From positions 25,717 through 89,716 of IMG/VR virus record IMGVR_UViG_3300047282_000191: DNA of 64,000 bases. The stretch is one strand, 5' to 3'. Below, in pieces: positions 7,091 to 35,904 of the stretch. How positions within the stretch are numbered: the stretch's first letter is position 1; each line of letters opens with the position of its first letter. This DNA comes from a virus (taxonomy: Duplodnaviria; Caudoviricetes). The notes beneath the pieces were generated by a model. The model saw only the letters and a program-made list of their open reading frames with translations. It was not told the origin of the DNA and searched no databases. A program made the position numbers and the translations under genes.

Positions 7091-7115
7091 CGAAGGGCTG
7101 TCTTCCAACCCTCCG
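7091..7115 (-). promoter_or_regulatory. 5'-UTR stem-loop with GAAGA pentaloop upstream of the beta-barrel gene
   Basis: Minus-strand CGGAGGGUUG-GAAGA-CAGCCCUUCG: 10-bp stem with two G-U pairs, so it folds fully only on the coding strand; no U tract follows. Confidence 0.5.
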
Positions 7116-7127
7116 GTATTGTTTACT

Positions 7128-10371: not shown

Positions 10372-11875
10372 ACCAATCCTTTAAAAATTCATAATGATTT
10401 GGAAATGTATCTATAGCATTATCTATTTCAGATCTTTTACATTTAATAAAATATTCAGCGTACTTTAATTCTTCTTTAGAAAGTTGGTATTTTTCTGTAT
10501 CAGCATATGCATCATTGGCATGTAACATACTAAACCAATGTCCGCTATGAAATCCTGAAGTTTTATCATCTAAATAAAAATTTCTGTGTAATATAGGATA
10601 GAATTGACTAAACATCTCTTGCACGTAAATCGGTGCATTTTCAAGTTTTTGGCTTCTAATCTCTTTCCAAAAAGGAGTATCATCTCTATCGCTATAATGA
10701 TAATGAGCCCAAACAAATGCAATAATCTCAACGACCATATTAATATATGAAGCATTAAATGCATTCATAAGATTATCATTCCATATACCGCTGTGATGGT
10801 TTAAACCGTTTGTTAATGCTTCAACTATCTTAGTAGTAAACGTGATGCCAGTAGCTTCTAATGGTTCTACAAATCCAGCCGATAGACCAACTGCTATTAC
10901 ATTTTTATATGCTACTTTCTCTGATGCACCGCATCTCATCTTTAAATGACGAGCTTTAGCATCATACTCACCAATACTATCTCTAAGTTCTTTTTCAGCA
11001 TCCTCTGCAGAGATATGTTTAGATGAATAGACATATCCATTCCCAATTTGTTTGAAAGTAGGGATAGTCCATCTCCAACCACTGGTCATAGTAGTAGCTT
11101 TTGTATATGGATGACATTCATTATGTGGATCTTTATACTGCGTAGGCATAGCTACAGCACTATCGCACGGCAATATACTAGAAATATCCATGAATGGGAC
11201 TTTAAGTTCTTTATTAATTAACTTAGCTTCAAACCCAGTACAGTCTATAAAAAGATCTGCAGTGTGTTTTCTACCTTGTTCATCTAACAAGTATTCAATG
11301 CCTTCATCAGAAGTTTTTATTTCAGTGATCTTAGTATCAAAGTATGTGATCCTATCTTTAATTAGATCAGCAATAGTATCTAATATATCAAATGCAGAGA
11401 AGTGTACAGCTCCCCAATCTTTATATGTTCTTTGCGATAAGTAATGATCAAATCCTTCCAATTTAGGACTTTTATTCGCCATAGCAAGTCTATAAGCTGG
11501 TAACCAATCTCTCCATTCGTTTTTATCTTTATGAATGAAATAATCATGTGCATAAAAATTTGGACCCATAATATGATTTTCTATAAAATCATTATCAACG
11601 AAGTATGGATCTTTGTTCCAACCAGTTAACAACACACCATATTTGAAAGCCGCATGACATGGTTTCATCCACTGTTTAGGCTCTAATCCTGCATCATGCA
11701 AAAATCTAGATGTAAAAGGTTGTGTTCCCTCTCCAACTCCAATAGGTCCTAGTGCTTTACTTTCTATAAGTGTGATATTACAAGGAAAATTTAATCGATT
11801 CGTTATATAAGCAGCAGTTAACCATCCACTGGTGCCACCACCAAATATCGTTATATTCTTTATCTTCTTAATCAT
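10340..11875 (-). CDS. Flavin-dependent tryptophan-halogenase-family protein
   Basis: GGGTSGW FAD-binding motif, IGVGEGT, FIDCTGF, WxWxIP (GWRWTIP), GNGYVYS, GLSAGFVEPLEATGI. Confidence 0.9.
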   Translation of the reverse strand: MIKKIKNITIFGGGTSGWLTAAYITNRLNFPCNITLIESKALGPIGVGEGTQPFTSRFLHDAGLEPKQWMKPCHAAFKYGVLLTGWNKDPYFVDNDFIENHIMGPNFYAHDYFIHKDKNEWRDWLPAYRLAMANKSPKLEGFDHYLSQRTYKDWGAVHFSAFDILDTIADLIKDRITYFDTKITEIKTSDEGIEYLLDEQGRKHTADLFIDCTGFEAKLINKELKVPFMDISSILPCDSAVAMPTQYKDPHNECHPYTKATTMTSGWRWTIPTFKQIGNGYVYSSKHISAEDAEKELRDSIGEYDAKARHLKMRCGASEKVAYKNVIAVGLSAGFVEPLEATGITFTTKIVEALTNGLNHHSGIWNDNLMNAFNASYINMVVEIIAFVWAHYHYSDRDDTPFWKEIRSQKLENAPIYVQEMFSQFYPILHRNFYLDDKTSGFHSGHWFSMLHANDAYADTEKYQLSKEELKYAEYFIKCKRSEIDNAIDTFPNHYEFLKDWYERTGNTVQS

Positions 11876-13545
11876 TTCTTAATCACCAAGATGTAAAGTC
11901 CATTCCACCACTCTCGTGGGTTTTCTTCAGAGTTTAATATTAACTTTTCATATACGACTCTTGCTTCAACTTCATCTAAACCTTCTTTAACACCTTGAGC
12001 TACAGTCTCCCAATTTGCATCGTCAAAAACTAAGATTGCCTCATCAGCTAATATTGGCCAATAATATTTTATTGCATCAGCAGTAGACTTTGCATCATGA
12101 GGACCATCATACATAAACATATCTATTTTAGAATCAATTTCATTCAAATTAACATTTAACATATCTTCTTTGAAAACTTTTACATCTGAAGTTTTTACAT
12201 AAGGAGATATATTATTGATGAATGTATCATAACTATTGGCTTCAGTTTGGAAATCATCTCTAGCCGGTTGAATCTGTTCTTCCCATTTGTCGATCAAGTA
12301 TGCTTTGATTGGATTATTATATAGTACTGCTGCAGCTGTTGCTCCAAGATATGTGCCTACTTCTAAGTAAGATCCGCATTTTGATGCCAACGAGTTTAAC
12401 AGTGTTTGTACTCTGGAACTCGTTAAACCACTAATGTTGATATTAACTCTTGGAATACCGCTCTTAGCTATACAATCAACTACATGTTTTGTAATATCAG
12501 TATAATCATACACGTCTTTTTTCTCTTCTATCTTATCACAATACTGACATTCCCAACAATCAAACTTGCAATTCTTAATTTTATCTCGCCAAATATTAAT
12601 AGGTTTGCCAGATATTTGAGCTTTATTAATAAAGTCATCAAAGTTATCATCTAATATTTCTTCTCCAGCAACATATCTTTCAACTTTTCGCATGGTTTCT
12701 CCCAAGCGATTTATGCTTTCTCTACCATGCATCTTAAAAACATCGATACCCAAATCAAGATATTCATCCCAATCTTTTTTCCAAGGAGAAAAGTTTGCAG
12801 TCTTCAAATAAACTGCTGGATCTTCAACATCCCATTTAGGGCAACTCACTCTACTTATAGAAGAGTTAAAGTATGAAGGATCTTTATCACTACGAGTATT
12901 GTTATATTCGAAGTGTTCATCCATCATAGGACATTCGCCTAAGCAACCTTCGTTGGCCAGTAAACTATATTGGATATCTTTACCTAAATTTATCTTTATC
13001 CATTCTTTAGCTTCTTTTAAACGAAGTAGAGCGTCTCTATCTCTCATCAGATCTCTATCTAAGTTTATATAATCAAACCCCGCTTGTGCTAATGCTACGA
13101 CTTCTACTGGTCTTCTGACATTTCGCAATATAGTATTCTTAACAAATAAATCTGGAAATGCTGCTTTAATTTGACCAGTTGCCATCCAATGAGTGTGGGG
13201 TATGGTCGCTACTTTAATCCCTGCATCATATAACGGCTTAAAGTTAAAGATAAAGGTATCTAAGTTTGTTTGTGTTGGCGGTACTTGAATATTATTAAAT
13301 GTAGCCGATGCCTTTATGCCCAAATATTTTTGAATATTTAAAGCAGTTTCAATAAGGTTGACTTTGTCTTGATTAAATATGATCACATCACCCATAGCAT
13401 CTTGTTTAAATGGGTCTATTCTAGATGTGAAGTATACATCAGCAATCCAGTCTTTATACTGATCTAGCCAATGATAAAATGCCGTAAACTCTTCTTGTGA
13501 AAGTTTAGGATTGATGGGTATGCTAAAGATTTTTTGTGGATTCAC
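11872..13545 (-). CDS. U32-family (Fe-S, TIM-barrel) domain fused to a class I SAM methyltransferase (Methyltransf_24-like)
   Basis: N-part: INLDRDL.R, L.NEGC...CP, FKMHGRE, C...C..C..C. C-part: YLEVGTYLGATA, ID.W, IDMFMYDGPH, L...AILVFDD.NW. Confidence 0.7.
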   Translation of the reverse strand: MNPQKIFSIPINPKLSQEEFTAFYHWLDQYKDWIADVYFTSRIDPFKQDAMGDVIIFNQDKVNLIETALNIQKYLGIKASATFNNIQVPPTQTNLDTFIFNFKPLYDAGIKVATIPHTHWMATGQIKAAFPDLFVKNTILRNVRRPVEVVALAQAGFDYINLDRDLMRDRDALLRLKEAKEWIKINLGKDIQYSLLANEGCLGECPMMDEHFEYNNTRSDKDPSYFNSSISRVSCPKWDVEDPAVYLKTANFSPWKKDWDEYLDLGIDVFKMHGRESINRLGETMRKVERYVAGEEILDDNFDDFINKAQISGKPINIWRDKIKNCKFDCWECQYCDKIEEKKDVYDYTDITKHVVDCIAKSGIPRVNINISGLTSSRVQTLLNSLASKCGSYLEVGTYLGATAAAVLYNNPIKAYLIDKWEEQIQPARDDFQTEANSYDTFINNISPYVKTSDVKVFKEDMLNVNLNEIDSKIDMFMYDGPHDAKSTADAIKYYWPILADEAILVFDDANWETVAQGVKEGLDEVEARVVYEKLILNSEENPREWWNGLYILVIKK

Positions 13546-18143: not shown

Positions 18144-21100
18144 TTAACCGTATGAAGACATTTGACCTAAAACTACCCAAGCTCCTGCACTAGTTCTAAT
18201 TAGTGTGAATACAACGACGTCAGTTTTATTAGCTTGAGGAGTAGGTTGTGTGTTACCCGCCCATCTGATAGTTTGTGATGCTGAATTAATCTGTACAGCT
18301 GTAGGTAAGTATCCTGTACTACCTTGTGCTAATACTAATGTAACAGACATGATCCTACCAGATGTTGTCGGCACGTTGGTAAAGTTAGCAGTAAAGTTTG
18401 CACTAATGCTGGAATGATAGAACACGTCAGTAACAGCGAAATCATGTGTTACTGTACCAGTCGCAGAAGTCTTAGAATCCATCAATTCAACGATCGACTC
18501 GACGTTAGTGATACCACCAACTTGTAAGTTATTGTTGATCGTTGTAGTACCAGTCGCAGCACCGATATTAACTGTAGTAGCAGCACCAAACGCATTTACT
18601 GTGGTTGCATTTGTATTGAATAGTGTTACAGTTCCTGTAGATGTTGTAGTGATGTCTCCACCATTTACAGCGATGTCTCCAGTTAAAGTTAATCCTCCAA
18701 CTCTTAGATCACCATATGTTAATCCAGTGCCAGAGAAGTTAACTGTGCTTAAAGGTGCTAGTTCATCTAAACCAGTAAATAGTTTAAACACTCCATCTGA
18801 AGCATCTCTCACTAAACCGCTAAACTTAGGTTGGAAGACGACCTTTCCATTTGCGTGTGTAGCTGCCGTTGTGCTATTAGCTCCACGAGTACATCCAGTG
18901 AATGTTGTAGCAGTTTTACCGGTATATGTGATCTCTTCACTTTCGATGTATAGATGTCCAGTAGAACCAAATGCTGCTGTACTTGTCACCGTGATCGTAG
19001 TAGCTGAAGCTGATATACCACCAACGATATTGATCGTAGTAGCTTGTGAACTGTGGATACCATAGAAACCTAAGTCAACGGTGTCTGTTGAGTTTCCTGT
19101 ACCCATCTTGATCATAGGATCTGAAACTGCAAGTGTTGAAGTTTCTAGTGATGAACCAGCACCACCGATAGAGATCGCACCTGTAATATTAACGTTACCG
19201 CCAACATACAAGTTACCTTGTAATCCAACACCACCATCAATACGTAAAGCACCTGTCGTTACGCTTGTAGCTTCAGTATTAGCATAGATCTCTACGCCTT
19301 CAGCATGACCCGCTCTTGCTGCACCGATGATTCGTAGTTTTTCATTACCAGCATCAAATCCATTTGTAAAGAATACGATATCGTTTTGTGTTCCAGTATT
19401 ATCTGTACCAATCAACATGTTGCCAGTAGATGATGTACCTGCTGGTGCTGACATGAAGATGTATCCAGTAGAAGGACCTGTAACTGTGAACGTTGGATCG
19501 TTGTAGTTCTCAGATGTGATACCCATATCCATCCAACCAGAGTCATTGTCTCCGTTAGATGAATATACGATCATGTCTGTAGAAGCACCTGTACCACTAT
19601 TAAAGTTCTTCAATGCTACTTGTACGAATGAATCTGCGTGACCAGTAAATACTGCAGATGCATCGGTTAGACCAACATAACCAGCGTATACTGTGTCATC
19701 TTGTGTAAGCTGTTTAGCTGTGACTTCTCCATCACGACCTTGATAGATAGCACCACCATAAGCTTGGATCTCACCGTCTAGGTTCAAGTTACCTTGTAAT
19801 CCAACACCGCCTTGTACTCTTAATGCACCAGTGAATGGGTTATATGAAGCTGTATTGATATAAACCTCAATACCAGCTGGATCTTTTTGTTGTGTGATAG
19901 TCCTAGATGTAAGAGTTTGACGTTGATCTACAGTATATGTTCCAACTCCACCAGCAGTTCCTGTGAGTTGAGATGATATAGTAGTTCCGTTGACGACACC
20001 TGTACCAGTAATTGTCTTTGTACCATCAAATATGATAGGTCCACCGCTAGCAATAGCTGTAACTGTTAATACGTTATCTGCGATTGAGCCAGTGAATACT
20101 GCTCCGCTTCTGCTTTCACCAATGATACGCATCTTTTCTGCGTCTGTATTTGTTGTCGGATCGAAACCACCTGTAACGAACACGATGTCTTTTTCAACTC
20201 CGTTTTCACCAGTAGCGATGACTAAGTTACCAGGACCAGTTGAACCAACTGGAGCGTTCATGAACAAGTATCCGTCATGAACGTCAGTGATACCATATCC
20301 AGAGGTGATATCGAATCCAGAGGATGTGATACCCATGTCGATCCAACCTGAATCGTTGTCACCGTCATCTGTGTAGCAGATCAAGTCTGTAGATGCTGCA
20401 GGACCATCATTGATATTCTTAAGAGCGATTTGACCAAACGCATCAACGTCAGAAACGGCTAAGAACTTAACATCTGTTAAGCCAACATAACCAGCATATT
20501 GATGATCGTCTTGTAGATAAAGCTGTGCGTCTTCACCGATGAAGATAGAAGCTGATGCACTTGTTCCAGCGGTCTCACCGATGATCACATGATCTTGAAG
20601 ATGGATCGTTTCAGCTGCAAGGTGTGCAGTTAATGACCATTCCGGTTCTGTGCCAGCAGGATTTACTACTAAAATAGGTTGGCTTTGATGTGTAGATCCA
20701 TCATGATCTGTATGTGATGATCCTAAAGCTGCGATAGGTAGACGAGTTGCACCGCTAGAATCACGATAGATGATATCGCCTCGAGTAGTAACTACAGCTG
20801 AGGCAGAACCGTCAGCGAGTACTTGCCAATAAGTGTTAGTTGTATCTGCTGCAGGAGAGTTACCTGATGATGCAGTGTGTGCTTGGATACAAATATGAGT
20901 ACTTGTACCTTGTTTAACAAGTTGATTTAACTTGTATGCTGTACCACTTGTCCAGTTACCTGACCATTCTAAGCCTTCGCTGAATAGTTCCCAATGGCCT
21001 GTATCATATGGAGTTTCTGTAGTAGCGTCAGCTGTACATAAGTATTGATTGCCGCCGTAACGAACTAGATCACCTGTCTTATATGGTAATACACCAGAAC

Positions 21101-21611
21101 CTGATGCAATCCAATCTCCGCGATTGTTTAGACCTTCAACGAAAGGTCTCCATATAGTAACATCAGATGTTGGTGTAACGTTATCATTTGCTTCTAGTGC
21201 ATAATAAGTATAACCGCCGTATGAAACTACGTCGCCAATTTGATATTCTACTGCTGGATCCCAAGATTCTTCTACTTCAACACCTTTTGCGAAGATGTCC
21301 CAGTAACTTGGGTTTAGTGTTGCGGTTGCGGTGTGTGCTGTTGTACAGATGTATGATGATCCACCATATGCAACGATGTCGTTTACTTTATAGTATGTTG
21401 CATTTGTGTATACGTTTTTCCATTCAAAGCCATCGTTCATTAATTGCCATTTGGCAGAATCTGCGTATAATGTTGCCGCAGCCACGTGTCCTTGTACGCA
21501 CACATATGATTTTCCGCCGTGTCGTACGATGTCATCTTTCACATACGTAGCAGCAGTCGTCCATGCGCCTTTCCATACGAATTTAAGTCTACCTAATTTA
21601 AACTCTGCCAT
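18144..21611 (-). CDS. Large virion fibre protein with N-terminal CBM5/12-like repeats and an internal duplication
   Basis: MAEFKLGRLKFVWKG.W start; about 5-6 W....Y...D.V.YGG..Y.C repeats; duplicated ALKN....ASTD...GDNDSGW.DMGITS domain. Confidence 0.75.
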   Translation of the reverse strand: MAEFKLGRLKFVWKGAWTTAATYVKDDIVRHGGKSYVCVQGHVAAATLYADSAKWQLMNDGFEWKNVYTNATYYKVNDIVAYGGSSYICTTAHTATATLNPSYWDIFAKGVEVEESWDPAVEYQIGDVVSYGGYTYYALEANDNVTPTSDVTIWRPFVEGLNNRGDWIASGSGVLPYKTGDLVRYGGNQYLCTADATTETPYDTGHWELFSEGLEWSGNWTSGTAYKLNQLVKQGTSTHICIQAHTASSGNSPAADTTNTYWQVLADGSASAVVTTRGDIIYRDSSGATRLPIAALGSSHTDHDGSTHQSQPILVVNPAGTEPEWSLTAHLAAETIHLQDHVIIGETAGTSASASIFIGEDAQLYLQDDHQYAGYVGLTDVKFLAVSDVDAFGQIALKNINDGPAASTDLICYTDDGDNDSGWIDMGITSSGFDITSGYGITDVHDGYLFMNAPVGSTGPGNLVIATGENGVEKDIVFVTGGFDPTTNTDAEKMRIIGESRSGAVFTGSIADNVLTVTAIASGGPIIFDGTKTITGTGVVNGTTISSQLTGTAGGVGTYTVDQRQTLTSRTITQQKDPAGIEVYINTASYNPFTGALRVQGGVGLQGNLNLDGEIQAYGGAIYQGRDGEVTAKQLTQDDTVYAGYVGLTDASAVFTGHADSFVQVALKNFNSGTGASTDMIVYSSNGDNDSGWMDMGITSENYNDPTFTVTGPSTGYIFMSAPAGTSSTGNMLIGTDNTGTQNDIVFFTNGFDAGNEKLRIIGAARAGHAEGVEIYANTEATSVTTGALRIDGGVGLQGNLYVGGNVNITGAISIGGAGSSLETSTLAVSDPMIKMGTGNSTDTVDLGFYGIHSSQATTINIVGGISASATTITVTSTAAFGSTGHLYIESEEITYTGKTATTFTGCTRGANSTTAATHANGKVVFQPKFSGLVRDASDGVFKLFTGLDELAPLSTVNFSGTGLTYGDLRVGGLTLTGDIAVNGGDITTTSTGTVTLFNTNATTVNAFGAATTVNIGAATGTTTINNNLQVGGITNVESIVELMDSKTSATGTVTHDFAVTDVFYHSSISANFTANFTNVPTTSGRIMSVTLVLAQGSTGYLPTAVQINSASQTIRWAGNTQPTPQANKTDVVVFTLIRTSAGAWVVLGQMSSYG

Positions 21612-25762: not shown

Positions 25763-25770
25763 TATTTATA
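25763..25770 (-). promoter_or_regulatory. T4-type late promoter TATAAATA
   Basis: Plus strand TATTTATA at 25763-25770, overlapping the DUF3050 stop codon. Confidence 0.75.
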
Positions 25771-26521
25771 TGAGTTGCGATTCTATGTCATCAAATAATT
25801 TAATTCTGGCTTTAATGGCTTTAATTGCGGCTTGTTCAGCCTCGTGAATTAAGAATGGATCATCTTTACAAAAATAATTAACCAAATGCTCTGACATGGG
25901 TCCATGGCTATCTCCATCGACCTGTATATGTCTTTCTAAGTAATAATGAAACTTAGGAGCATCAGTTTCTGATATATCGATCTGTTTAAGTAACCTTTTA
26001 AACATTGCTGGAATTACTGACTCTCTACCATAACAAAATGAAGCTGCGGCACAATGAGGTCCCATGTTTATAGCATCAAAAGTAGTTTTTACAAAATCCA
26101 TAGAGGCTTTTGGAACATACTCACATTCTATATGTGAATTGAACTTACTAACGGCATCCAGGTAATTTCTAACGGGCATTGTATCAGCACCTACTTCCAT
26201 CATTGCCTGTAAATATAAGTCAAAATGGCTTATAGATGATTTACCATCTGGAGATATATCAGACTCTTCACAAAGAACTATCTCATTGATCATCCTAGCA
26301 ATATCAGATCTTGTGCCAGGAGTTGGTAGCCATATATTACTAGTTGGCACTACATTGTGTTGTATAGTTTTTAATAGACTCATGAAATCCCATACCGCAA
26401 AGACGTGGTATTTCATGAAGATTCTAAGATCTTCAATAGATTGTATAGTATTAGTTACAAGAAGAGAATGATTCTCAAGCTGAGATCGGTGCTCTTGTAT
26501 CTTCTTTAGGTCTAATTTCAT
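25766..26521 (-). CDS. DUF3050 / heme-oxygenase-like (HDO) diiron protein
   Basis: FM..HVFAVWDFMSLLK, R.INEIVL.EESD, SHF.LYL.AM...GA, F..GRE..IP.MF, YYLERHI..DGD.HGP. Confidence 0.85.
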   Translation of the reverse strand: MKLDLKKIQEHRSQLENHSLLVTNTIQSIEDLRIFMKYHVFAVWDFMSLLKTIQHNVVPTSNIWLPTPGTRSDIARMINEIVLCEESDISPDGKSSISHFDLYLQAMMEVGADTMPVRNYLDAVSKFNSHIECEYVPKASMDFVKTTFDAINMGPHCAAASFCYGRESVIPAMFKRLLKQIDISETDAPKFHYYLERHIQVDGDSHGPMSEHLVNYFCKDDPFLIHEAEQAAIKAIKARIKLFDDIESQLI

Positions 26522-27806
26522 TTAATCCAGTTTCTAATAATTCTATAGGTTCATTAAACAATAATGAGAATGCGTTTTGTTGGATAGCAGAATACCAAAT
26601 CTTTTCTACTCTACAATTATGCAAAAATACTTCATCAGGAAACTTAATAGGACAACTAGACTTACAAAGTCTTCTAACTGGACATGTATAACAATGCTCG
26701 TGTTTTCTATCTAAATCTAATTGTATGATCTTAACACTCTTGATATCTTTGATATGACCTCCTTTAAATTTCTCAGAGGTGTGTGGGCATAACCTAACTT
26801 GTCCCATGATATCCATAGAAAGAATGTCAGCAGCATCAGCTCCACAATTTGAAGTCATTGTGATGGGTATTTGATGTCGAGTTAAAGCAGCATACTTAAG
26901 AACACCAGCATCTCCATCAATGACATTAGAGTTTAAGATACGATCTCCACCCTCTCTCAATTGTTTGATAGCAGCTTTAATATAGTCATTAACTATCTTT
27001 TTAAACTTGGGTAAATCATCGCCTTTGATGACATGCTCAGCTGAGTTTTTAGAGTCTGTATCATCATAAACTCGTGCAGGAATATAACTAATCCTTGCAT
27101 GTTTTAATCCCAATTTATCTTTTATAGCTTTAAAATAATCATTAATTTCAAAGAGATCGAAGTTTGTAGCAGAAACTACAGGATTAAAACTATATTGCAC
27201 TTTAGGACTCATGTCATCAAATTGTTTGATGACATCTACAACACTCTTTCTACCAAAGATATCTTCACCACGAAGTCTTTCATGTCCTGGACCATCATGT
27301 GAAATACCCATCATGACGCTTGCTGTTAAAGTCTTAAAGAAGTCAACATGCTTTTGCCTCAACGGAGATGCGTTTGTAGAAATGTAGAAGTGACGTCCTG
27401 GCCCATCAAGTAACTTCATGATTGGCACCATGTCATTCCAGTATAGAAACGGTTCACCGCCCCAAAGTTCGATACGTTCTAAGTTTTCTAAGTCAAGATA
27501 CTTGTTTATGGATTCTACAAATGATTCAAGCCAGAAGTTTTGTGGTCTCTCATCTGGATTACCAATATCTTTTTGCATACAATATGTGCATGAATAGTTA
27601 CATGCATGTCCTAAAAGGATTCGTAATGCAGTTGGCTTATTTGTCTTGTGTTGTACACCAAAGTTATGTTGTACATTTTCAAAGAATTCATAACCTTCTT
27701 TGGGAGGCAAAGATAGGATCTCGCCTTTATCATTATGAAGACTGTTATCCAAGTTTCTATAATAGAATACTTTACCAGATTGTGTTTGAAATTTACTAAA
27801 GCTCAT
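26475..27806 (-). CDS. Radical SAM/SPASM enzyme (rSAM-4)
   Basis: CNYSCTYC, ELWGGEPF, STN, ISHDGP, and C-terminal C...CP.H / C..C.....C...CP...C. Start moved to ATG 27806 (ATGA overlap with the upstream stop). Confidence 0.92.
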   Translation of the reverse strand: MSFSKFQTQSGKVFYYRNLDNSLHNDKGEILSLPPKEGYEFFENVQHNFGVQHKTNKPTALRILLGHACNYSCTYCMQKDIGNPDERPQNFWLESFVESINKYLDLENLERIELWGGEPFLYWNDMVPIMKLLDGPGRHFYISTNASPLRQKHVDFFKTLTASVMMGISHDGPGHERLRGEDIFGRKSVVDVIKQFDDMSPKVQYSFNPVVSATNFDLFEINDYFKAIKDKLGLKHARISYIPARVYDDTDSKNSAEHVIKGDDLPKFKKIVNDYIKAAIKQLREGGDRILNSNVIDGDAGVLKYAALTRHQIPITMTSNCGADAADILSMDIMGQVRLCPHTSEKFKGGHIKDIKSVKIIQLDLDRKHEHCYTCPVRRLCKSSCPIKFPDEVFLHNCRVEKIWYSAIQQNAFSLLFNEPIELLETGLNEIRPKEDTRAPISA

Positions 27807-28864
27807 TTTATGCCTATAATTGGTACGATATTGCCGCAATTAGGCTTGACTAAACCAAATTTAGTCTTCGCCCATCCATTTTCTAATAATTTATAACAGT
27901 ATTTACTATATGGCGGGATCATCAATCCTGGGATAAAATTAAAATTGCGATTGATATTATAATCAGCAACAAGATTGAAATATTTTTTAAATTTAGGATT
28001 CTTCGTCCTATTCGCCCATTTGCTATATGCTTTTTGTTTACCAAGTAAAAGATCTGTTAAGAATGCTTCTCTATCAAAGCTATCTTGTACTTGATGAAAT
28101 GCTTCTTCGTTTAAATCACTTGCGTCATCACTAGAATAATACCAACGATCAAAATAAAGATGCACAGATTCCCTATAAATCTGCATTAAACCCTGTTCAT
28201 CGCTATCGACCCAAGTTGTTTGTTCTTGCGCCCATTCATGTTCTAATACTTCTCTTTGACCTAAGAAATTATGGTGAACAATGTTATCCATATTATGTTT
28301 ATTTGCAAGTTCAATATATGGTGTAAATAACTCAGGATATCCATCATCTATAAACTTAAGTTTTAAGATAGGAGACTTATCATTCAACCGTTCTAATGCA
28401 TCAATTAATTTCTTTGGATTTACTGATTTTAAAAACGTTGAACTAATGCTAATATTAGCTAAAGATTTAAATTTAATGGTGTCTAATATTTTTGCTGTTC
28501 TAAAAATAGCATTATCTGTAAAACAATATTCTAAGTTATGGGCATTCTCTTGATACCATCTATATGCATCCGGATAGTTTAATTTCAGAAAAAGCATATC
28601 ATCGTTAGTACGAACTACTAAGAAATGAGAGAATACCTCTTGCCACATATCTTCATGTTTTTGTGTTATCTTTGGGAAGTATGTGTTTAAGTTTGGCTTA
28701 ATACCTTTAAAATTTTTATCGATATAACATATCTTGCAACCAGCAGCGCAATAATATCTTGTACCCAAACTAAAATAGACATCATAGTTAACTGGATGTA
28801 ATGCATCTTGTGTTAACCAGTACTCGTGTAGATTCTCGGCTTTTTCAAAATCTTCAGTTATCAT
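27803..28864 (-). CDS. Divergent radical-SAM-like protein (rSAM-3)
   Basis: CAAGCKIC (CxxxCxxC) near the N-terminus; no GGEP motif and no SPASM Cys cluster. Confidence 0.6.
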   Translation of the reverse strand: MITEDFEKAENLHEYWLTQDALHPVNYDVYFSLGTRYYCAAGCKICYIDKNFKGIKPNLNTYFPKITQKHEDMWQEVFSHFLVVRTNDDMLFLKLNYPDAYRWYQENAHNLEYCFTDNAIFRTAKILDTIKFKSLANISISSTFLKSVNPKKLIDALERLNDKSPILKLKFIDDGYPELFTPYIELANKHNMDNIVHHNFLGQREVLEHEWAQEQTTWVDSDEQGLMQIYRESVHLYFDRWYYSSDDASDLNEEAFHQVQDSFDREAFLTDLLLGKQKAYSKWANRTKNPKFKKYFNLVADYNINRNFNFIPGLMIPPYSKYCYKLLENGWAKTKFGLVKPNCGNIVPIIGIK

Positions 28865-29979
28865 ATATTCACCTTGAATTGATTATCTATACCAATCCTA
28901 TGGAACAATGTTTTTTCTTTCTTAAGCTCTGCATTGTGCATTATAGCAGTATCAACGAACTTATAGAAATCTTTACAACTTCCTTCAGGTTGTTTATCAA
29001 ATAACTTATAAAGGTATTTTAAACCACAACTTGCTTTTTGTTGACATTTGAGACATGATTCATTAACTCTACCTTCATCGCCTCGAGGTTGCCAAACTTC
29101 GACTCCATCTTGCCATTTGCCTATGCGTGTATTCTCAACTTTATATTCTAAGAAATCAAATTCTGGATACAAATAACCGTCAGGAGATAATATTAGTTTA
29201 TTATGTTCTGCAAAATATGCTTTATCAATCTTGTCATAATTACCATCAATGAAAATATTTAATTTCTTAATGTATAATATTTGAATAAACTCAAGAAATG
29301 CACCAAAGAATTGCGGCAAGTTTATTCGATCTATGATAACATCAAATTTCTCTTCGCCGCGGTGATGTCTAAGGGGGATAATGTTTACAGTCTTACATCC
29401 AGTGTTGTAACACGTATCTACTATAGATTGTATATTTTCAAACGAGAATGCTCGTCTATCTTCAACAGGCAAGACATACTGCCATTTCCAATCAAAACAA
29501 TGCTGATTTAATACTTCAGCCATTTCTATAACATTTAGTTTATCGCGATTCTCTTCTTGGAACATAAAATCATAACTAATAGTTGCACCAAGTTTACCAG
29601 AATACTTTTCAAATATATGCTTGTTCTCTTTAACTAAAGAACCATTGGTTGTCATTCCTACCTTCCAACCATTGCGCTCGGCGATAGGCATCAACCATTC
29701 TAGGCATTGTTCCATGCGTTTTGCAAATAATAGCGGTTCACCACCATGGAAAGATACCCATTCAACTTTATTTTCTTGTCTTTCTGCCCACAAGAAAAAC
29801 TCTTGCAACTCTTGAGTTGTATTGCCGTTTAAGGATTGACCACCAAGAGATTCTATATAACCTCGATCACAATATACGCAATCAAAGTTGCACTTGTTTC
29901 CAAGATAGATGATAAGCATCTTAACATTATTAAGAGGCTTTTCTCTCTTATTGTAAAAGTTTATAGCTGATTGCATCAT
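28861..29979 (-). CDS. Radical SAM enzyme with a reduced SPASM-like C-terminus (rSAM-2)
   Basis: CNFDCVYC, SFHGGEPLL, TTNGSL, ISYD, LSPDG..YP, CLKC.....C.......C. Confidence 0.9.
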   Translation of the reverse strand: MMQSAINFYNKREKPLNNVKMLIIYLGNKCNFDCVYCDRGYIESLGGQSLNGNTTQELQEFFLWAERQENKVEWVSFHGGEPLLFAKRMEQCLEWLMPIAERNGWKVGMTTNGSLVKENKHIFEKYSGKLGATISYDFMFQEENRDKLNVIEMAEVLNQHCFDWKWQYVLPVEDRRAFSFENIQSIVDTCYNTGCKTVNIIPLRHHRGEEKFDVIIDRINLPQFFGAFLEFIQILYIKKLNIFIDGNYDKIDKAYFAEHNKLILSPDGYLYPEFDFLEYKVENTRIGKWQDGVEVWQPRGDEGRVNESCLKCQQKASCGLKYLYKLFDKQPEGSCKDFYKFVDTAIMHNAELKKEKTLFHRIGIDNQFKVNI

Positions 29980-31669
29980 CTAAGGCTCGGTCATCAGAGG
30001 CTAATATCAATACGTGAAGTAATGCTAAGAAAAATACTTCTTGCATCTGGTTTTGTACTTTAACTATTCTGCCAGTTGGCATATTTCTCTTAGCTAGAAT
30101 TTGATAATAAAAATCGTCGATACTTACTTGCTTATCTCCGATTAAATGTTCTATAGCATCAAGGAACTCTTCTGGTTTAACTTTATCCAGTTCTTTATGC
30201 TTACCTTCCATAATCTCTAACCAAAAACCCAACAATCGTTGAGGATCTTTAAACTTATTAACGAGATCATTGTGTACTTTATCGAGCGATGGATGATACT
30301 GATAGACATAGTAGAATAGCATATAGCTGATAGCTTTGAGGAATGTTTGTTCGTACCCTTCAGTGTGCAATGCACGGACTAATGTATCATATTTAATCTT
30401 AAATTGTTTCTTGGCGATATCTTCTTGTAAATCTACATAAAGCTTAACAATCTTTTGACACATGTCATCTGGTCTGAACATACGCGTACCAGTATCTAAG
30501 TTGCCCGCTGGACACTGATAGCATGCATTCTTATAATCACAAGTCTTGCACTGCTCTTCCTCTTCGAACATCTTAGCATATTCTTTTTGGAAGTGTTTAT
30601 AACGATCTATATAGATCGTATCATTAAATATATTACCCAATATAGTATCTGATGTTGGCCCACCCTTTTGATTTGTGAAGAAGTAGCAACCAGAAAAATC
30701 TCCACTGGCATCAATCGCTATCATATCAGAACCGATCATACAGTTCTCTTCGCCCTTCTTTCCAACACCCTCACTAAAATGGATTTGCAAGTCTTCATAC
30801 TTATCAAGCGATTTTAATATGTCATTGTGGAGAGTATTCCATTCTTGTTCACTCCATTGAATGAATCCTCTTGCAGAATCTAATATCAATGGATGAACTA
30901 CTAAACGTCTAATTCCTCGCTTATACAAATTATCAACAAACTCTGCAAAGTAAGGTGCATTCTCTCTGGCAAGAGTACAGCGTACAGTGACTCGTTTCTG
31001 AAATTTTGGCTCTTCTGGGATTGTTTGGATCTGATCCATGAGCTTGTTTATCTTCTCTTGACCGATCTCTCTATGATCGACCTCAGCCTTATCAGTATCT
31101 AGCGAGATAAGCATATATGTAAAGTCGTGCGAGAAATATTCTTCAACAAGAGGTTGACTTAATAATAACCCATTGGTGACGATACCGATAACAGTATTAC
31201 TCTCTCCACGTGAGTTAAGTTCTAGCTCTTCTTTATTCTTGCGTAGGAAATCTAAGATGATATCTTTGTGGATTAAAGGTTCTCCGCCAAAGAATTGAAA
31301 TACTTTCTTTTGATTAGTGTTTGCATCTTTTAAGAATCGATATGCAGTTAAGAGAGACTCATTGGTAAACCTACCAAAGTCTTTCTTATGCTGCTCATAA
31401 CAATAAGAACATGATAAATTACATGCATTAGTTAATATAAGATTCATCTGCTTCAATTCACTGAACAGATATTTTGTATTGCTTATATTAAGAATAGTCT
31501 CTGTTTCTTTAGGAACTACAGAGATTAATTTATTAATCTTATCCAATCCCTTTGGTGTAATAATCTTTTCACTAAGGAATTGAAATTGTCCATCAGTCTC
31601 AACAACTGAGGCTTTATGATCTTCTTGTCTTTGTCTTTGAGCTTCGGTTTTTAACCAAATAGTCTTCAT
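29948..31669 (-). CDS. Radical SAM/SPASM enzyme with C-terminal helical extension (rSAM-1)
   Basis: CNLSCSYC, FFGGEPL, VTNG.LL, ISLD, C..G......D..G.F.GC, C..C.....C..CP......C. Start moved to ATG 31669, overlapping the peptide stop (ATGA). Confidence 0.92.
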   Translation of the reverse strand: MKTIWLKTEAQRQRQEDHKASVVETDGQFQFLSEKIITPKGLDKINKLISVVPKETETILNISNTKYLFSELKQMNLILTNACNLSCSYCYEQHKKDFGRFTNESLLTAYRFLKDANTNQKKVFQFFGGEPLIHKDIILDFLRKNKEELELNSRGESNTVIGIVTNGLLLSQPLVEEYFSHDFTYMLISLDTDKAEVDHREIGQEKINKLMDQIQTIPEEPKFQKRVTVRCTLARENAPYFAEFVDNLYKRGIRRLVVHPLILDSARGFIQWSEQEWNTLHNDILKSLDKYEDLQIHFSEGVGKKGEENCMIGSDMIAIDASGDFSGCYFFTNQKGGPTSDTILGNIFNDTIYIDRYKHFQKEYAKMFEEEEQCKTCDYKNACYQCPAGNLDTGTRMFRPDDMCQKIVKLYVDLQEDIAKKQFKIKYDTLVRALHTEGYEQTFLKAISYMLFYYVYQYHPSLDKVHNDLVNKFKDPQRLLGFWLEIMEGKHKELDKVKPEEFLDAIEHLIGDKQVSIDDFYYQILAKRNMPTGRIVKVQNQMQEVFFLALLHVLILASDDRALDDAISYKLLQ

Positions 31670-31872
31670 ACAGTCCCACGGCCACAAGCGCAAGCACACT
31701 GACATTCGCAGACAGTGTTATAATCATCATAAAATATGTGGCTGTGAGATGCTAGAGATTCTAGCACATCTAGCATTTGCCTAAAAGTATCAGCTGAAAT
31801 AGTATCTTCAACTGCCTTTGTACCTGGGACCGTTGATCCAGTATTAAAATCGCTCGTATTTTCTACACCCAT
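31666..31872 (-). CDS. 68-aa Cys-rich peptide, putative radical-SAM substrate (HxH module plus CxCxCxCxC core)
   Basis: Ends YNTVCECQCACACGRGTV; RBS-like GAGG upstream; immediately precedes and is coupled to rSAM-1. Confidence 0.8.
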   Translation of the reverse strand: MGVENTSDFNTGSTVPGTKAVEDTISADTFRQMLDVLESLASHSHIFYDDYNTVCECQCACACGRGTV

Positions 31873-31873
31873 T

Positions 31874-32833
31874 TTAAACCTCTTCGTAATGTTTAGATAT
31901 AGTTATATTATATACTAAACGGTTTCCACTATTAATAAACGTCCAATCCATGGTATTACCAGTATTTAATCGAAGACTGATATAACCACTTTGTTGACCT
32001 TTTTTAAATCGTGCTTTATATTTATTAGACCCCAGGTTGATGATATCAAAATCGCTTGCAACCTTTATCAATGATGGATCTAAATTTTCATCAAGTGCTT
32101 GACGAAGGATACCTAATGCACCAACATCAAACTCGAATTCTTCTCCGCGTACTACATACCATCTATCTTCTAATGGATATGCATTCTTACTCATCTTTGG
32201 CTTTAAGAACTGAGTAGCGAAATCTCCCATATGTGCATCTAGATTTCTAAACCTTGCTTTGTCTGTTTCGAATTCTACTTCATCACCCAAAACAATAGTT
32301 GACGGGTTAAAAACCACAAGATAGATCGGAGCATTCTTCATCTTGTACGCATAAAACCACGTTATTGTACTGATGTGTTTATTTTCATCAGTAGTTATGA
32401 ATTCTTCTTTTTGTATATCATATATGTGACCACCCATCCAAGGATTGCGAGTATAGAATACGCTGTTTTGTATGATATCGTTATGAGAACCACCACTCAT
32501 AAATGTACCAAAGCCAAGTGACTTTTCTTGATTTTTATCAAGCCACTCAATTACAAAGTTTACATCGATGCCTTTAGTGACTGCTCTATTCATCTCCATC
32601 GAAGGTTGCACAAATTGCTTTGTTAATACAAAGTCGTAACCATCTACATGACCTCTATTCTTATTAAATACAATCTTATTGTCCTTCTTATCGAAATGAT
32701 ATAGATAAGATTGTGGTTCCTTAGGGTTTACCCAAAAACCTTTTATATCAGAATCAGAATTCCATGTTTGGATAGCATCTAACCATGGGGTACTTTTTGT
32801 TTGACCACATTGAAAAAATACTATAGGTTTCAT
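31874..32833 (-). CDS. Hypothetical protein in the rSAM operon
   Basis: 319-aa open frame ending 1 nt before the peptide start; no family recognised. Confidence 0.65.
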   Translation of the reverse strand: MKPIVFFQCGQTKSTPWLDAIQTWNSDSDIKGFWVNPKEPQSYLYHFDKKDNKIVFNKNRGHVDGYDFVLTKQFVQPSMEMNRAVTKGIDVNFVIEWLDKNQEKSLGFGTFMSGGSHNDIIQNSVFYTRNPWMGGHIYDIQKEEFITTDENKHISTITWFYAYKMKNAPIYLVVFNPSTIVLGDEVEFETDKARFRNLDAHMGDFATQFLKPKMSKNAYPLEDRWYVVRGEEFEFDVGALGILRQALDENLDPSLIKVASDFDIINLGSNKYKARFKKGQQSGYISLRLNTGNTMDWTFINSGNRLVYNITISKHYEEV

Positions 32834-32842
32834 GACATCTCC

Positions 32843-34069
32843 ATGTTTAATTATAATTACGTACTACCTTACACCAATCACTCAGATCTTGAACCGTTAA
32901 TCATCAGTTCCGCTGAGGACTTCCATTTGATTACGAAGTCTGGTCAGCGGATCCTAGATGCCCAATGCGGCAATATTAACTGCAACTTGGGTTACTCTCA
33001 ACATTCAATATCCAATGCTATTTATATGGCATCCAAGTCATTACCGTTCAGTAGACATAATAATGCTATGTTAGCCGAGATTGGCGCAGAGTATTCTAAG
33101 CGTCTATCCTACTATTTCCCGAAGCATGAAAAGTTTTTCTTTGGAAGTTCTGGATCAGATGCCATTGAGACGGCTTTACGTTTGTCATATATGACACGAT
33201 TAAAACAAAAGAGCGATAAGAAAAAGATAGTTACGTTTAAGGGATCATACCATGGATCTACATGGTTGACAGGATCCATCAGTGATTTGGGAGGTTTAGG
33301 ACAACACTTACCCCATTGGCCAGATAATTTAAAGTTGTCATCTCCATTTGGTAATGATGGGCAACAAACATTGTACGAGCTTGAAATGTTAGACTTGTCG
33401 GGAGTTAGTTCCATAGTAATAGAACCATTCACATATTTGTCTGGAGTGTTTGAATGTAGTTATACATTTTGGGAAGAACTTGAAAAGATATGTAAACAAA
33501 ATGATATCCATCTAATATTAGACGAATCTGCATCGAGTTTCTTTAAGACTGGCAATTCATTCTACTACACATCAATTCCAATAGAACCAACATTCATAGT
33601 ACTATCAAAAAGTATTACTGCAGGTTACATGCCCCTCTCAGCCGTAGCTATCCACAATGATATTTGGCATATATTACAAGATGAATGGATCGTACATGGT
33701 TGGACAAATAGTGGATCAGTACCTGGATTAGCAGCAGCAAATGAAGCATTATTAATTTATGAAGAAAATGATTTTAATAATTGTGATTTGGTAGAAGATT
33801 TTCTATCATGGCTGGTGAGCGAGCATGACATTACCTCAACTAGACAAGTTGGTAACTTCTTTGCTTTTGATATGAAATCTAGGAAGTGGCGCCGAGATGT
33901 TGGCGTGAGGTTTGCTTCAGTAGCACTTAAACACGATCTTCAATTGACTACATTTAAGTATGATGCTATCGCTCGCGGATTGATACCACTAAATGCTACT
34001 GATAAATATTTTGATGAATTAAAAGAAAAAGTAAGCCGAGTCGTAGAAGATCGTGACTTACTGCGTTAA
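32843..34069 (+). CDS. Class III PLP-dependent aminotransferase
   Basis: G.RILD...G..NCNLG, FF..SGSDAIETA, SYHGST, IEP....G, LILDE....F.KTG, and PLP-lysine motif LSKSITAGY.PLSA. ATG start at 32843. Confidence 0.88.
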   Translation: MFNYNYVLPYTNHSDLEPLIISSAEDFHLITKSGQRILDAQCGNINCNLGYSQHSISNAIYMASKSLPFSRHNNAMLAEIGAEYSKRLSYYFPKHEKFFFGSSGSDAIETALRLSYMTRLKQKSDKKKIVTFKGSYHGSTWLTGSISDLGGLGQHLPHWPDNLKLSSPFGNDGQQTLYELEMLDLSGVSSIVIEPFTYLSGVFECSYTFWEELEKICKQNDIHLILDESASSFFKTGNSFYYTSIPIEPTFIVLSKSITAGYMPLSAVAIHNDIWHILQDEWIVHGWTNSGSVPGLAAANEALLIYEENDFNNCDLVEDFLSWLVSEHDITSTRQVGNFFAFDMKSRKWRRDVGVRFASVALKHDLQLTTFKYDAIARGLIPLNATDKYFDELKEKVSRVVEDRDLLR

Positions 34070-34431
34070 CCAGTACGATCATCAATCGTATGATTATGAT
34101 TTCCAAGTGTATTAATTTTATTTCTCATGTCATTATGTTTATCTGCAAAGATCTTATCACCTTGAGATATACCAGGTATTGATCCACCAATACTAGCAGT
34201 ATTCTTATCTTCATAATAATTTCCCCGATCACCATTATTACCAAATGTTGCTAATTGATATGCATCATCATAGGTATGGTAATGACCTAACCAACTATTG
34301 ATTAAGTTAATTAATGAAGTAATATCAGAAGCATTAATATTATTTCCTGATTGAATATTATTTCTTAGTCCGGCAATTGGACTATTATCAGCAAATATAT
34401 TGGCCTTAGGAGATCTTGAGTCTTGTGCCAT
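34066..34431 (-). CDS. 121-aa protein with two HxH modules, homologous to the N-part of the Cys-rich peptide
   Basis: INASDITSLINLINSWLGHYHTYDD and IFADKHNDMRNKINTLGNHNHTIDD align without gaps (up to HxH) to ISADTFRQMLDVLESLASHSHIFYDD. Confidence 0.75.
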   Translation of the reverse strand: MAQDSRSPKANIFADNSPIAGLRNNIQSGNNINASDITSLINLINSWLGHYHTYDDAYQLATFGNNGDRGNYYEDKNTASIGGSIPGISQGDKIFADKHNDMRNKINTLGNHNHTIDDRTG

Positions 34432-34432
34432 C

Positions 34433-34807
34433 TTATACCCCTATGACTTCGTCATAAAAAGATTTATCTGCAAATTCAGGTATACGAACATATACTTTCT
34501 CAGCTGATATTCCTCTTGCAATCATTTTTTTAATTAAACTATCAATATAAGTTTGTGTTTGATTTAAGTCGAATGCTTCTACCAATGGTTTAATATACGC
34601 AATAGATTCTAGATTATGATCTAAATTAATAAAGCTTTCATAAATAGCATCCCAATTTGGATCAATAAGCACTGCATTCGTAGTTTCTGGGATATCAATA
34701 TCTCCAACTACACCAATTAATTTTTGTACACTCGGTTTTTCACCGAAATAATTTTTTAAAATATCATGTTGTACAATAAACTCAAAGAAAACGTCTTCAT
34801 GATTCAT
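34433..34807 (-). CDS. Hypothetical protein (about 124 aa)
   Basis: Start set at ATG 34807 (TAATG overlap with the upstream fibre stop). Confidence 0.65.
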   Translation of the reverse strand: MNHEDVFFEFIVQHDILKNYFGEKPSVQKLIGVVGDIDIPETTNAVLIDPNWDAIYESFINLDHNLESIAYIKPLVEAFDLNQTQTYIDSLIKKMIARGISAEKVYVRIPEFADKSFYDEVIGV

Positions 34808-35904
34808 TATAGTATCACACACTCAACTAATTTTTCGCTAAATTCTTGATTTGTTTCAAGAGCTACACCAACAGGATTTAATACGCCATAGATTGCTCTA
34901 CCATCGACGTTGGCGATTACTGTTTGTCCTTTTGCAATTGGACCAATAACTCTAACTGGAACTCGTCCGCGAAGAGCAATCGCTTGACCATCAGCATCTT
35001 TATTCATTAAGAATGCTGGCTTCTCAGAAATTACACCAACTGCGATTTGACCTGGAGCATAAGAAGCTGTACACTCTGATTCAGTACTCAATGAAACCAC
35101 CATGACAGTTCCAACTGGATATTCTTTATCGGTTGTATATTTTTCTGCTAAGTCGGCGTATCTAGCTGATGTTGCAACACCATTAAACACGTTTGCTGTT
35201 AAATTGCCTGAACTATCACGTGCTGCGATAGTAGAATTAGTTGCAGCTGTAGCACTATTCATACCATCTAATAAGTCAGCATCAAGACCAGAGCTTGCTC
35301 CATCATTGCCAGAATGCCATGGAGTATAACCTAACGCAGCGACTACGTTAGCATTAGTTAAACTAAATTCACCTGAAGTAGAATTATATGTTATGTTTCC
35401 ATTAGTAGAAGCAATGCTTATTGCTGATCTTGCGCGAGCGTTTGTAAAATAAAGGTTAGTACTACCTTCTGCTGTAGCATCTGTAGTAAATGTAATGTTT
35501 GCAGAACCATTAAAAGAAGCACCGTTGATTGTGCGAGCAGTTTGTAATGTTGTAGCAGTCGATGCATTACCAGTAACATTACCTGTCAAGTTACCAGTAA
35601 CGTTTCCAGTAAGAGGACCGTTAAATTTAGTAGACGTCATTTCTCCAGTAACAGTTAAGTTACCAGCAGCAGTTAATACAAGTTCGAATGTGTCTGCAGA
35701 ATCTACGTTTACTTTGAATTCATTACCATCAGTAGAGATAACACCATCAAGAGGTCCTGCAGATCTTACTTCATTAATCGCTGCAACTACATTCGTTGCA
35801 TCAGTTAATAATCCAGCCGTGTCTCCTACGAAGTCACCAATCTGATTAGTTTTTAGTCTCCACCCATTAAAGGTGTCGGTTAGATTTACGTTGATAGCTG
35901 CCAT
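34807..35904 (-). CDS. Tail fibre protein with a C-terminal intramolecular-chaperone (Peptidase_G2/IMC-like) domain
   Basis: NV..TDTF..WR.KTN anchor; G.LTGNVTG repeats; GLDADLLDG; SA.YADLAE.Y..D..Y..GTV...GV.S..PA.LMN...AL.GRVPV. Confidence 0.75.
   Translation of the reverse strand: MAAINVNLTDTFNGWRLKTNQIGDFVGDTAGLLTDATNVVAAINEVRSAGPLDGVISTDGNEFKVNVDSADTFELVLTAAGNLTVTGEMTSTKFNGPLTGNVTGNLTGNVTGNASTATTLQTARTINGASFNGSANITFTTDATAEGSTNLYFTNARARSAISIASTNGNITYNSTSGEFSLTNANVVAALGYTPWHSGNDGASSGLDADLLDGMNSATAATNSTIAARDSSGNLTANVFNGVATSARYADLAEKYTTDKEYPVGTVMVVSLSTESECTASYAPGQIAVGVISEKPAFLMNKDADGQAIALRGRVPVRVIGPIAKGQTVIANVDGRAIYGVLNPVGVALETNQEFSEKLVECVIL

Follow-up and report, generated by a model that had tools for sequence, protein, structure and literature searches.

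A conserved radical-SAM cassette, probably acting on the cysteine-tailed member of a three-unit HxH protein module, beside phage tail-fibre genes

What do several radical S-adenosylmethionine (radical-SAM) enzymes act on when their genes lie among the tail-fibre genes of a phage? The question is raised by a 10-kb block in a stretch of 64,000 nucleotides, here called the window, which covers positions 25,717-89,716 of an 89.7-kb IMG/VR viral contig (IMGVR_UViG_3300047282_000191; estimated to be ~54% complete). A previous sequence-only reading had proposed that the enzymes of this block modify a small virion protein ending in CxCxCxCxC, rather than making a secreted ribosomally synthesised and post-translationally modified peptide (RiPP). 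In this study, we found that the block is a real and conserved radical-SAM cassette, most likely a maturation system for the Cys-tailed member of a fibre-linked module built of three HxH (His-x-His) units. All genes of the sequence-only reading were recovered at their positions, the short Cys-ended peptide among them; the cassette genes lie on the minus strand and the aminotransferase gene on the plus strand. The genes are as follows (aa, amino acids).

25766..26521, minus strand: DUF3050 protein, MgoB-like, with a haem-oxygenase-like fold (PF11251, 262.1 bits; cut-off 22.2)
26475..27839, minus strand: rSAM454, a radical-SAM enzyme (PF04055, 44.4 bits) with the SPASM-type motifs Cx13Gx4C and Cx2Cx5Cx3C; likely start Met12 at 27806
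27803..28864, minus strand: p353, a divergent protein of predicted radical-SAM fold with a CxxxCxxC motif, Pfam-negative
28861..29979, minus strand: rSAM372, a radical-SAM enzyme (PF04055, 41.2 bits) with the partial twitch-like auxiliary motif Cx2Cx5C…C
29948..31705, minus strand: rSAM585, a radical-SAM enzyme (PF04055, 59.9 bits) with a seven-Cys SPASM pattern; likely true start Met13 at 31669
31666..31872, minus strand: pep68, 68 aa, one HxH unit followed by a Cys ladder and a GRGTV tail; the proposed substrate
31874..32833, minus strand: p319, 319 aa, a beta-rich putative partner with a C-terminal immunoglobulin (Ig)-like domain
32801..34069, plus strand: class-III pyridoxal-phosphate (PLP) aminotransferase (PF00202, 146.3 bits; cut-off 30.5)
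34066..34431, minus strand: p121, 121 aa, two HxH units and no Cys; a paralogue of the N-terminal part of pep68
34433..34822, minus strand: p129, 129 aa from GTG or 124 aa from the first ATG, a small protein between the fibre gene and p121
34807..35904, minus strand: tail-fibre-like protein, 365 aa, directly upstream of the module, matching tail-fibre PHROGs

The overlapping gene junctions of the sequence-only reading could be read directly as ATGA start/stop overlaps at three places: pep68/rSAM585 (with Met13), rSAM372/p353, and p353/rSAM454 (with Met12). A consensus scan for promoters and terminators gave counts not above those in shuffled sequence. As that reading had also stated, virion genes lie on both flanks, where PHROGs identified baseplate wedge and hub, tail-fibre, and virion-structural genes. 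Its label of an intramolecular-chaperone type for the 365-aa fibre was not borne out, as Pfam shows no such family (Peptidase_S74) in this protein. Five proteins of the block, p353, pep68, p319, p121, and p129, are Pfam-negative, and p129 is restricted to closer relatives in the comparison of IMG/VR loci.

The block gave zero megablast matches against 50,697 phage records, and the Ralstonia jumbo phages RP12 and RP31 were found by protein searches only (42% identity for rSAM585 and 40% for the peptide). Thirty further IMG/VR loci, on contigs of up to 379 kb, carry the peptide together with rSAM585. The genes for rSAM372, p353, and rSAM454 are also present there wherever the contig extends far enough, and p121 is present in most of the 30. 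The identity of the peptide to its relatives in these loci and in RP12/RP31 ranges from 36 to 85%. The recurrence of peptide and enzymes in 30 IMG/VR loci and RP12/RP31 is well beyond chance. Conservation of the peptide beside homologous radical-SAM genes, on which the sequence-only reading had staked its proposal, was thus found in the synteny check.

The gene order in RP12 is two YomR-like virion structural proteins, ORF074, an unannotated open reading frame (ORF) of 65 aa, ORF075, ORF076-079, and ORF080. ORF074 (125 aa) is of the p121 type, ORF075 has 295 aa, ORF076-079 are three annotated radical-SAM or Fe-S proteins and one 'hypothetical' protein, and ORF080 is MgoB/DUF3050. The 65-aa ORF (NC_041911.1, 82889-83086; 14889-15086 in our locus L001) encodes a ladder peptide that ends …SHTHVFYDNYGSNCNCNCACTRGSL. 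It was left unannotated in the GenBank/RefSeq records of both RP12 and RP31, and the RP12 paper names the enzymes one by one without connecting them (PMC5468394).

Clustered at 90% identity, the peptide family forms 90 or more groups, every one of them unnamed, generically named, or mis-named, and it has 81 representatives among 1.84 billion proteins. A pattern scan for the peptide in 185,579 prokaryote genomes gave no confirmed case. The scan of prokaryote genomes for the enzymes found three cassette loci, with orthologues in two contigs of metagenome-assembled genomes and one Ewingella americana scaffold only; the next-best cellular radical-SAM genes showed ~25% identity. Pep68, rSAM585, rSAM372, p353, and rSAM454 have counterparts in loci L032-L034 as far as the contigs extend. 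The Ewingella locus (strain E4, L033; NZ_RCZD01000008.1, 214110-227762) places the cassette in a bacterial isolate assembly. Besides a fibre-like gene and four genes of radical-SAM type, it encodes a partner of 311 aa and two HxH proteins, one of 86 aa with a single unit and one of 122 aa with two units and a ladder of six Cys. Its GC content of 40% and a transposase at one end suggest a prophage, tailocin, or island. It belongs to a different element, because a baseplate protein of the window phage was not found in the Ewingella genome, and strain E4 may be a cultivable source of the cassette.

The peptide pep68 consists of a helix, the motif HSHIFYDDY, the ladder CECQCACAC, and the tail GRGTV, with the C-terminal end VCECQCACACGRGTV. 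In the alignment, the peptides vary in their N-terminal part and are invariant in their C-terminal part; H43, H45, D49, D50, C55, C57, C63, R65, and G66 do not vary (residues are in true numbering; the window rows of the alignments lack Met1). The ladder consensus, (C-x)3-5-C-x-R-G-[TS]-[LVI], sits on the last HxH unit, its spacers are Q, A, E, D, or N only, and the tail is x-R-G-[TS]-[LVI]. Ladder length varied from 1 to 6 Cys across phages and was not related to how many radical-SAM genes a locus has. In the 56-aa peptide P0090 from a JGI metagenome, the ladder is reduced to a single Cys (…HNHIFYDDCSRGTL), which suggests that the repeat contracts and expands.

We investigated the relationship between pep68 and p121. 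In the HxH unit, an amphipathic helix precedes the motif HxHx(F/Y/I)xDD, and p121 has two such units (…GHYHTYDD… and …NHNHTIDD…). The pep68 profile aligned to the C-terminal unit of p121 with an hhalign probability of 95% (E-value 3e-8). By this profile comparison, the N-terminal part of pep68 is homologous to the p121 repeat. An Atlas search with p121 gave unnamed clusters made up of viral proteins only; the closest cluster with a name was a CXXX-repeat target, at a chance-level score of 0.78.

A hidden Markov model (HMM) of the unit found exactly three units in 31 of the 35 loci. The remaining four are L020 and L033, with three units by eye, L031, whose second ORF is partial, and L034, where the contig is too short. 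Unit counts in distant relatives were made by eye. In every complete locus, the total is three units over one or two genes (2+1, 1+2, or 3), and the ladder, where present, always follows the last unit. The window has the split 2+1, with two units in p121 and one in pep68. In L115, L118, and the Ewingella locus, a one-unit protein precedes a protein with two units and the ladder. A single chain of 230 aa (P0117, from L113) holds three units and the ladder, and P0144 and P0163 hold three units without a ladder. In L112, a two-unit protein is followed by one unit, ladder, poly-Pro linker, and a domain of ~180 aa (P0137). The ladder-less L116 has two units with a domain of ~350 aa, then one unit with a domain of ~140 aa. 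The HxH unit is found as the N-terminal module of larger proteins, namely P0137, P0166, and a 497-aa protein of L116. The last (6498-7991 of that locus) carries a weak Hint/intein-like region (PF05203 and PF01079, below cut-off) after its two N-terminal units.

These natural variants also bear on the target of the enzymes. Besides a p319-type gene, the ladder-bearing loci L112, L113, L115, and L118 contain one to four radical-SAM genes: the 454 type only in L112, the 585 and 372 types in L113, all four with a 2-oxoglutarate (2OG) oxygenase in L115, and at least the 585 type in L118. In the ladder-less L116, no ORF with CxxxCxxC and no relative of p319 was found within 8 kb on either side. The ladder-less P0144 contig shares its upstream synteny with L113 and continues with a 693-aa protein; its precomputed gene list holds no radical-SAM Pfam hit. 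The failure to find the enzymes and p319 in the DNA or gene list of the ladder-less systems points, in these few cases, to the ladder rather than the HxH-DD motif as the target. These two cases suggest that the ladder, p319, and the radical-SAM genes occur together.

We examined what kind of enzymes these are. The sequence-only reading had counted four radical-SAM proteins, of which three pass the PF04055 cut-off of 29.5 bits and carry the CxxxCxxC motifs CNLSCSYC, CNYSCTYC, and CNFDCVYC. The three can be aligned with one another over the core and the auxiliary region, and rSAM585 has extensions of ~70 aa at the N-terminus and ~150 aa at the C-terminus. The SPASM domains of that reading were judged by the motif of seven Cys, CX9-15GX4C … CX2CX5CX3C … C. 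Read by eye, all seven conserved auxiliary Cys are found in rSAM585 and six in rSAM454, and rSAM372 shows Cx2Cx5C…C only. The patterns of rSAM585 and rSAM454 are of the SPASM type, and the profile scores fall just short (PF13186, 20.7 bits for rSAM585 against a cut-off of 21.5; TIGR04085, 26.3 bits for rSAM454 against 27). Pfam gave nothing usable for the C-terminal 156 residues of rSAM585 or the N-terminus of rSAM454.

The best matches of the enzymes are maturases of Cys-containing peptides (PapB, CXXX-repeat, SCIFF, QhpD) and not the housekeeping families QueE or NrdG. For rSAM585, the best families were PapB (114.9 bits), CXXX-repeat (77.7), and SCIFF (77.1), and the best PDB match was CteB. 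For rSAM454, they were N_Twi radical SAM (54 bits), QhpD (50), and PapB (49.1), with TigE in the PDB, and for rSAM372 PapB (51.2 bits), with CteB. None of the three reached the cut-off of 340 for the PapB-family maturase NF047865. In addition, rSAM585 was short of the equivalogs TIGR03974 (77.1 against 425 bits), TIGR04115 (77.7 against 350), and TIGR04463 (53.6 against 525). Because all best family scores are far under the cut-offs, the phage enzymes represent new families. The anaerobic sulfatase maturase TIGR03942 was not reached either (54.6 and 40.9 bits; cut-off 349), and the ladder end C-x-C-x-R merely resembles the sulfatase-maturase substrate motif C/S-x-P/A-x-R.

The fourth protein, p353, had no Pfam or NCBIfam hit. 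C39, C43, and C46 of its CxxxCxxC motif are invariant, TNDD occupies the GGE position, and it has zero auxiliary-cluster Cys. Comparison with the sister enzymes gave weak hhalign probabilities of 49-63%. Its AlphaFold2 model had a pLDDT (predicted local distance difference test) of 90.3, and the 13 best structural matches of this model were all radical-SAM enzymes (Z 8-10 over ~240 residues), led by SuiB (Z 10.2), MoaA (10.2), and SkfB (9.9), followed by ChlB, viperin, PqqE, anSME, and CteB. A Foldseek search against the PDB was weak, with DesII as the best match (E-value 1e-3). The model indicates that p353 has a radical-SAM fold, perhaps without standard activity.

The other genes of the block differ in how widely they are conserved. 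The model of p319 (pLDDT 80) is beta-rich, and a generic C-terminal Ig-like domain (Z 5-6.5) is its sole recognised part, with no assignment for the first 200 residues. Its best match among viral models was ORF075 of RP12 (template-modelling score 0.70-0.75, E-value 1e-17, 13% identity), and the p319-family profile found the neighbours of the ladder proteins in L112, L115, and L118. The p319 slot is therefore conserved. The DUF3050 assignment of the sequence-only reading was confirmed by the HMM score given above, and the protein matched PDB 9VWB, a DUF3050 protein, with an E-value of 2e-48. The aminotransferase did not reach the specific equivalogs for BioA (TIGR00508, 164.9 against 405 bits) or the daptide aminotransferase (130.3 against 450). 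That reading had counted the haem-oxygenase-like protein and the aminotransferase as parts of the system. Both genes are real; they are accessory rather than core because of their patchy occurrence: about half of the loci have DUF3050, and the aminotransferase is confined to the nine closest relatives.

The link to tail fibres was examined through the gene upstream of the module. In RP12 (L001), L021, L030/L031, L033, L112, L113, L115, L116, and L118, the gene that stops a few bases upstream of the first HxH gene encodes a protein with the C-terminal tail …W(K/R/I/V)Q(V/I/F)(W/Y/F)P..(Y/W). Seven of these proteins were scanned, and they matched tail or virion-structural PHROGs. The genes of the window that lie in this slot are those of the 365-aa fibre and p129. 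The module may dock on the conserved tail of the upstream fibre-like proteins.

The reading that we favour, and to which we give somewhat better than an even chance, is a fibre-associated three-unit HxH module with a radical-SAM-cross-linked Cys tail, a modified protein rather than a secreted RiPP. The three units would pack on a pseudo-threefold axis, and their six His would form one octahedral metal site, like the HxH motifs of trimeric tail fibres. The Cys ladder would be the substrate of the cassette enzymes (two of SPASM type, one twitch-like, and one degenerate). The product would most likely carry intramolecular thioether links of the ranthionine or sactionine type from Cys to the interleaved Glu, Gln, Asp, Asn, or Ala. 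In this scheme, p319 may act as a partner or chaperone, and DUF3050 and the aminotransferase may provide lineage-specific tailoring. The product would stay a full-length modified protein, as part of a tail-fibre structure or needed for its assembly, with no cleavage or export as in a classical RiPP. The proposal in the sequence-only reading of a modified protein agrees with the architecture, the fibre-gene synteny, the natural fusions, and the lack of a recognisable protease or exporter in the window block; its location in the virion or at the fibre tip is one that we infer. A bolder version is put forward tentatively, and we rate it rather below an even chance. Here, several phage lineages would build a pseudo-trimeric metal-binding 'knot' of exactly three HxH units, with the Cys ladder stapled by up to four radical-SAM enzymes, as the matured tip or adaptor of a host-binding fibre, so that radical cross-linking would be a step of virion morphogenesis.

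Several observations weigh against the reading of a cross-linked, fibre-associated module. Because the family scores are far under the curated cut-offs, the chemistry is not transferable by homology, and Pfam detected no RiPP recognition element (RRE; PqqD-like, PF05402) in the 90 N-terminal residues of rSAM585. The contrast between ladder-bearing and ladder-less systems is drawn from one complete and one partial context. In L113, the module lies among replication genes, with a single fibre-like gene as the exception. A search for longer p121 relatives, a weak test, found no unit or ladder fused to a recognised fibre shaft. The published mass spectrometry of RP31 virions lists zero cassette proteins. 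This proteome speaks neither for nor against a virion role, because it was a survey of bands from sodium dodecyl sulfate polyacrylamide gel electrophoresis (SDS-PAGE) that did not include the unannotated ORF; a cross-linked Cys peptide from such an ORF would escape it anyway.

The same evidence was weighed for other explanations. The genes could encode a classical phage RiPP, in which the HxH part is a leader and the Cys core is cross-linked, cleaved, and freed at lysis as a bacteriocin, signal, or anti-defence agent, with p121 as a leader-like decoy or chaperone. The short Cys-rich peptide immediately upstream of SPASM radical-SAM genes fits this view, as do the best matches to ranthipeptide/SCIFF maturases and the variable N-terminal and invariant C-terminal parts of the peptide. 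However, scans with Pfam, NCBIfam, and PHROGs recognised no protease or peptidase, exporter or other transporter, or immunity gene in the window block. The most conserved motif, HxHxFYDDY, sits between the 'leader' and the 'core' and is common to a protein that is not a substrate. In addition, the ladder is internal in P0137, before the linker and domain, and ends a three-unit protein in P0117, and neither the three-unit count nor the fixed place beside fibre genes is expected of a free peptide. We consider a RiPP unlikely. It is also improbable, in our judgement, that the module serves fibre assembly as a chaperone or scaffold, in the way of Tfa, gp38, or gp57A, and does not remain in the mature particle; its ladder may then hold a metal or Fe-S cluster. 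Such an assembly factor would agree with the small size of the proteins, their absence from the RP31 virion list, and their position directly after a fibre gene, the usual place of tail-fibre assembly genes. Yet up to four radical-SAM enzymes seem costly for a transient chaperone, and the variant units bear distal domains on linkers, as structural and receptor-binding proteins do; a survey of SDS-PAGE bands gives little ground for calling a protein absent.

The block also holds SPASM enzymes, a haem-oxygenase-like protein, and a PLP enzyme together, which would suit a cofactor or small molecule derived from the peptide in the manner of pyrroloquinoline quinone (PQQ) or mycofactocin. The YDDY, Cys, and RGT(V/L) residues would be cross-linked, and DUF3050, of the same clan as PqqC, and the aminotransferase would finish a redox-active or metal-binding product. 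The invariant C-terminal tail and the weak matches of the aminotransferase to BioA and the daptide RiPP aminotransferase are in line with this. Variation of the ladder from 1 to 6 Cys, however, is not tolerable for a defined cofactor, about half of the loci lack DUF3050, all but the closest relatives lack the aminotransferase, and the block has no recognisable peptidase; we regard this explanation as highly unlikely. Finally, the enzymes could act elsewhere, on DNA, nucleotides, host metabolites, or large fibre proteins, with the small proteins as mere neighbours. No enzyme reaches a curated family cut-off, and jumbo phages bear many auxiliary enzymes, such as the halogenase and oxygenase set 12 kb away. 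Against this stand the strict synteny and translational coupling across lineages at only 30-40% identity, and the fact that the subsets of one, two, or four enzymes always occur with a ladder protein and that none occurs in the two ladder-less systems examined. We therefore consider it very improbable.

The second set of tailoring enzymes lies at 8533-13545 of the window (minus strand), behind other fibre genes and ~12 kb from the cassette. A flavin halogenase of the tryptophan type (PF04820, 314 bits) is accompanied there by a cupin, a 2OG-Fe(II) oxygenase, and a protein of 557 aa that has a methyltransferase domain at its C-terminus. The oxygenase family PF13759 occurs in this set, and the same Pfam family closes the cassette in L115. 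At 18144-21611 (minus strand), a tail-fibre protein of 1155 aa carries five CBM_5_12 repeats of the chitin-binding type (84 bits in total). Towards its right end (56001-64000), the window increases in GC content from ~0.36 to values of 0.44-0.48.

If the favoured reading is true, a multi-enzyme radical-SAM system acting on a tail-fibre-associated protein would be a novel type of virion maturation by post-translational modification. Jumbo-phage genes, for example those of RP12, that have long been annotated singly as 'radical SAM', 'MoaA', or 'MgoB' would also be explained. The system is directly testable, with a substrate of 68 aa, the cultivable phages RP12 and RP31, and natural ladder-less and fused variants as controls, and the three-unit pattern is a simple structural prediction. 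A description of the cassette was not found in the literature on phages with RiPP, SPASM, ranthipeptide, or tail-fibre topics. New here are the radical-SAM fold predicted for p353, the pep68-p121 homology, the three-unit rule, the association of ladder and enzymes, and the upstream fibre-like gene in several distant lineages.

Thioether formation by radical-SAM enzymes has precedents in secreted RiPPs and in a small number of cellular proteins, namely QhpC and, since 2026, CrpA. Among the RiPP maturases, PapB (NF047865) and CteB (TIGR03974, PDB 5WGG) resemble rSAM585 in having a radical-SAM core with a seven-Cys SPASM pattern, and a substrate rich in Cys and Asp/Glu whose gene lies directly upstream. 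In the phage, however, an RRE, leader protease, or exporter was not detected, and the substrate is part of a three-unit module. The CXXX-repeat target system (TIGR04114/TIGR04115) likewise has a radical-SAM maturase beside a Cys-repeat protein; its period is C-x-x-x, whereas that of the phage is C-x, and the HxH three-unit module is specific to the phage family. QhpD (TIGR03906), which acts on QhpC, the gamma-subunit of quinohemoprotein amine dehydrogenase, is a SPASM enzyme that links Cys to Asp/Glu in a small protein that stays a subunit of a larger assembly. The phage differs from this system in its scores (50-67 bits against a cut-off of 453), the lack of dehydrogenase genes, and another substrate motif.

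On the side of the fibre, HxH iron sites are known from the spikes P2 gpV and phi92 gp138. HxH motifs also bind iron in the trimeric fibre tip of T4 gp37 (PMC11705849). The phage module likewise has His-x-His in a tail-fibre gene context, and three motifs would give six His. In contrast to the T4 homotrimer, the motifs come from one chain or two different chains (2+1, 1+2, or 3), and metal binding and fold are predicted only. The nearest characterised analogue in logic is CrpC/CrpA/CrpB of Methanococcus voltae, in which the SPASM enzyme CrpC, a member of TIGR04463, puts ranthionine thioethers on the Cys-rich protein CrpA (Dieter et al. 2026; PMC13692751). The N-terminal region of CrpA is common to its Cys-poor paralogue CrpB, and the product is thought to be metal-binding (PMC13692751). 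Both systems have a Cys-rich protein as substrate, and the sharing between CrpA and CrpB parallels that between pep68 and p121. They differ in that the phage ladder is C-x-C, and the Crp motif is C-x-x-Q/D in 17-residue repeats. The phage system, which is known from sequence, has up to four enzymes where Crp has one, and lies in a fibre-gene context.

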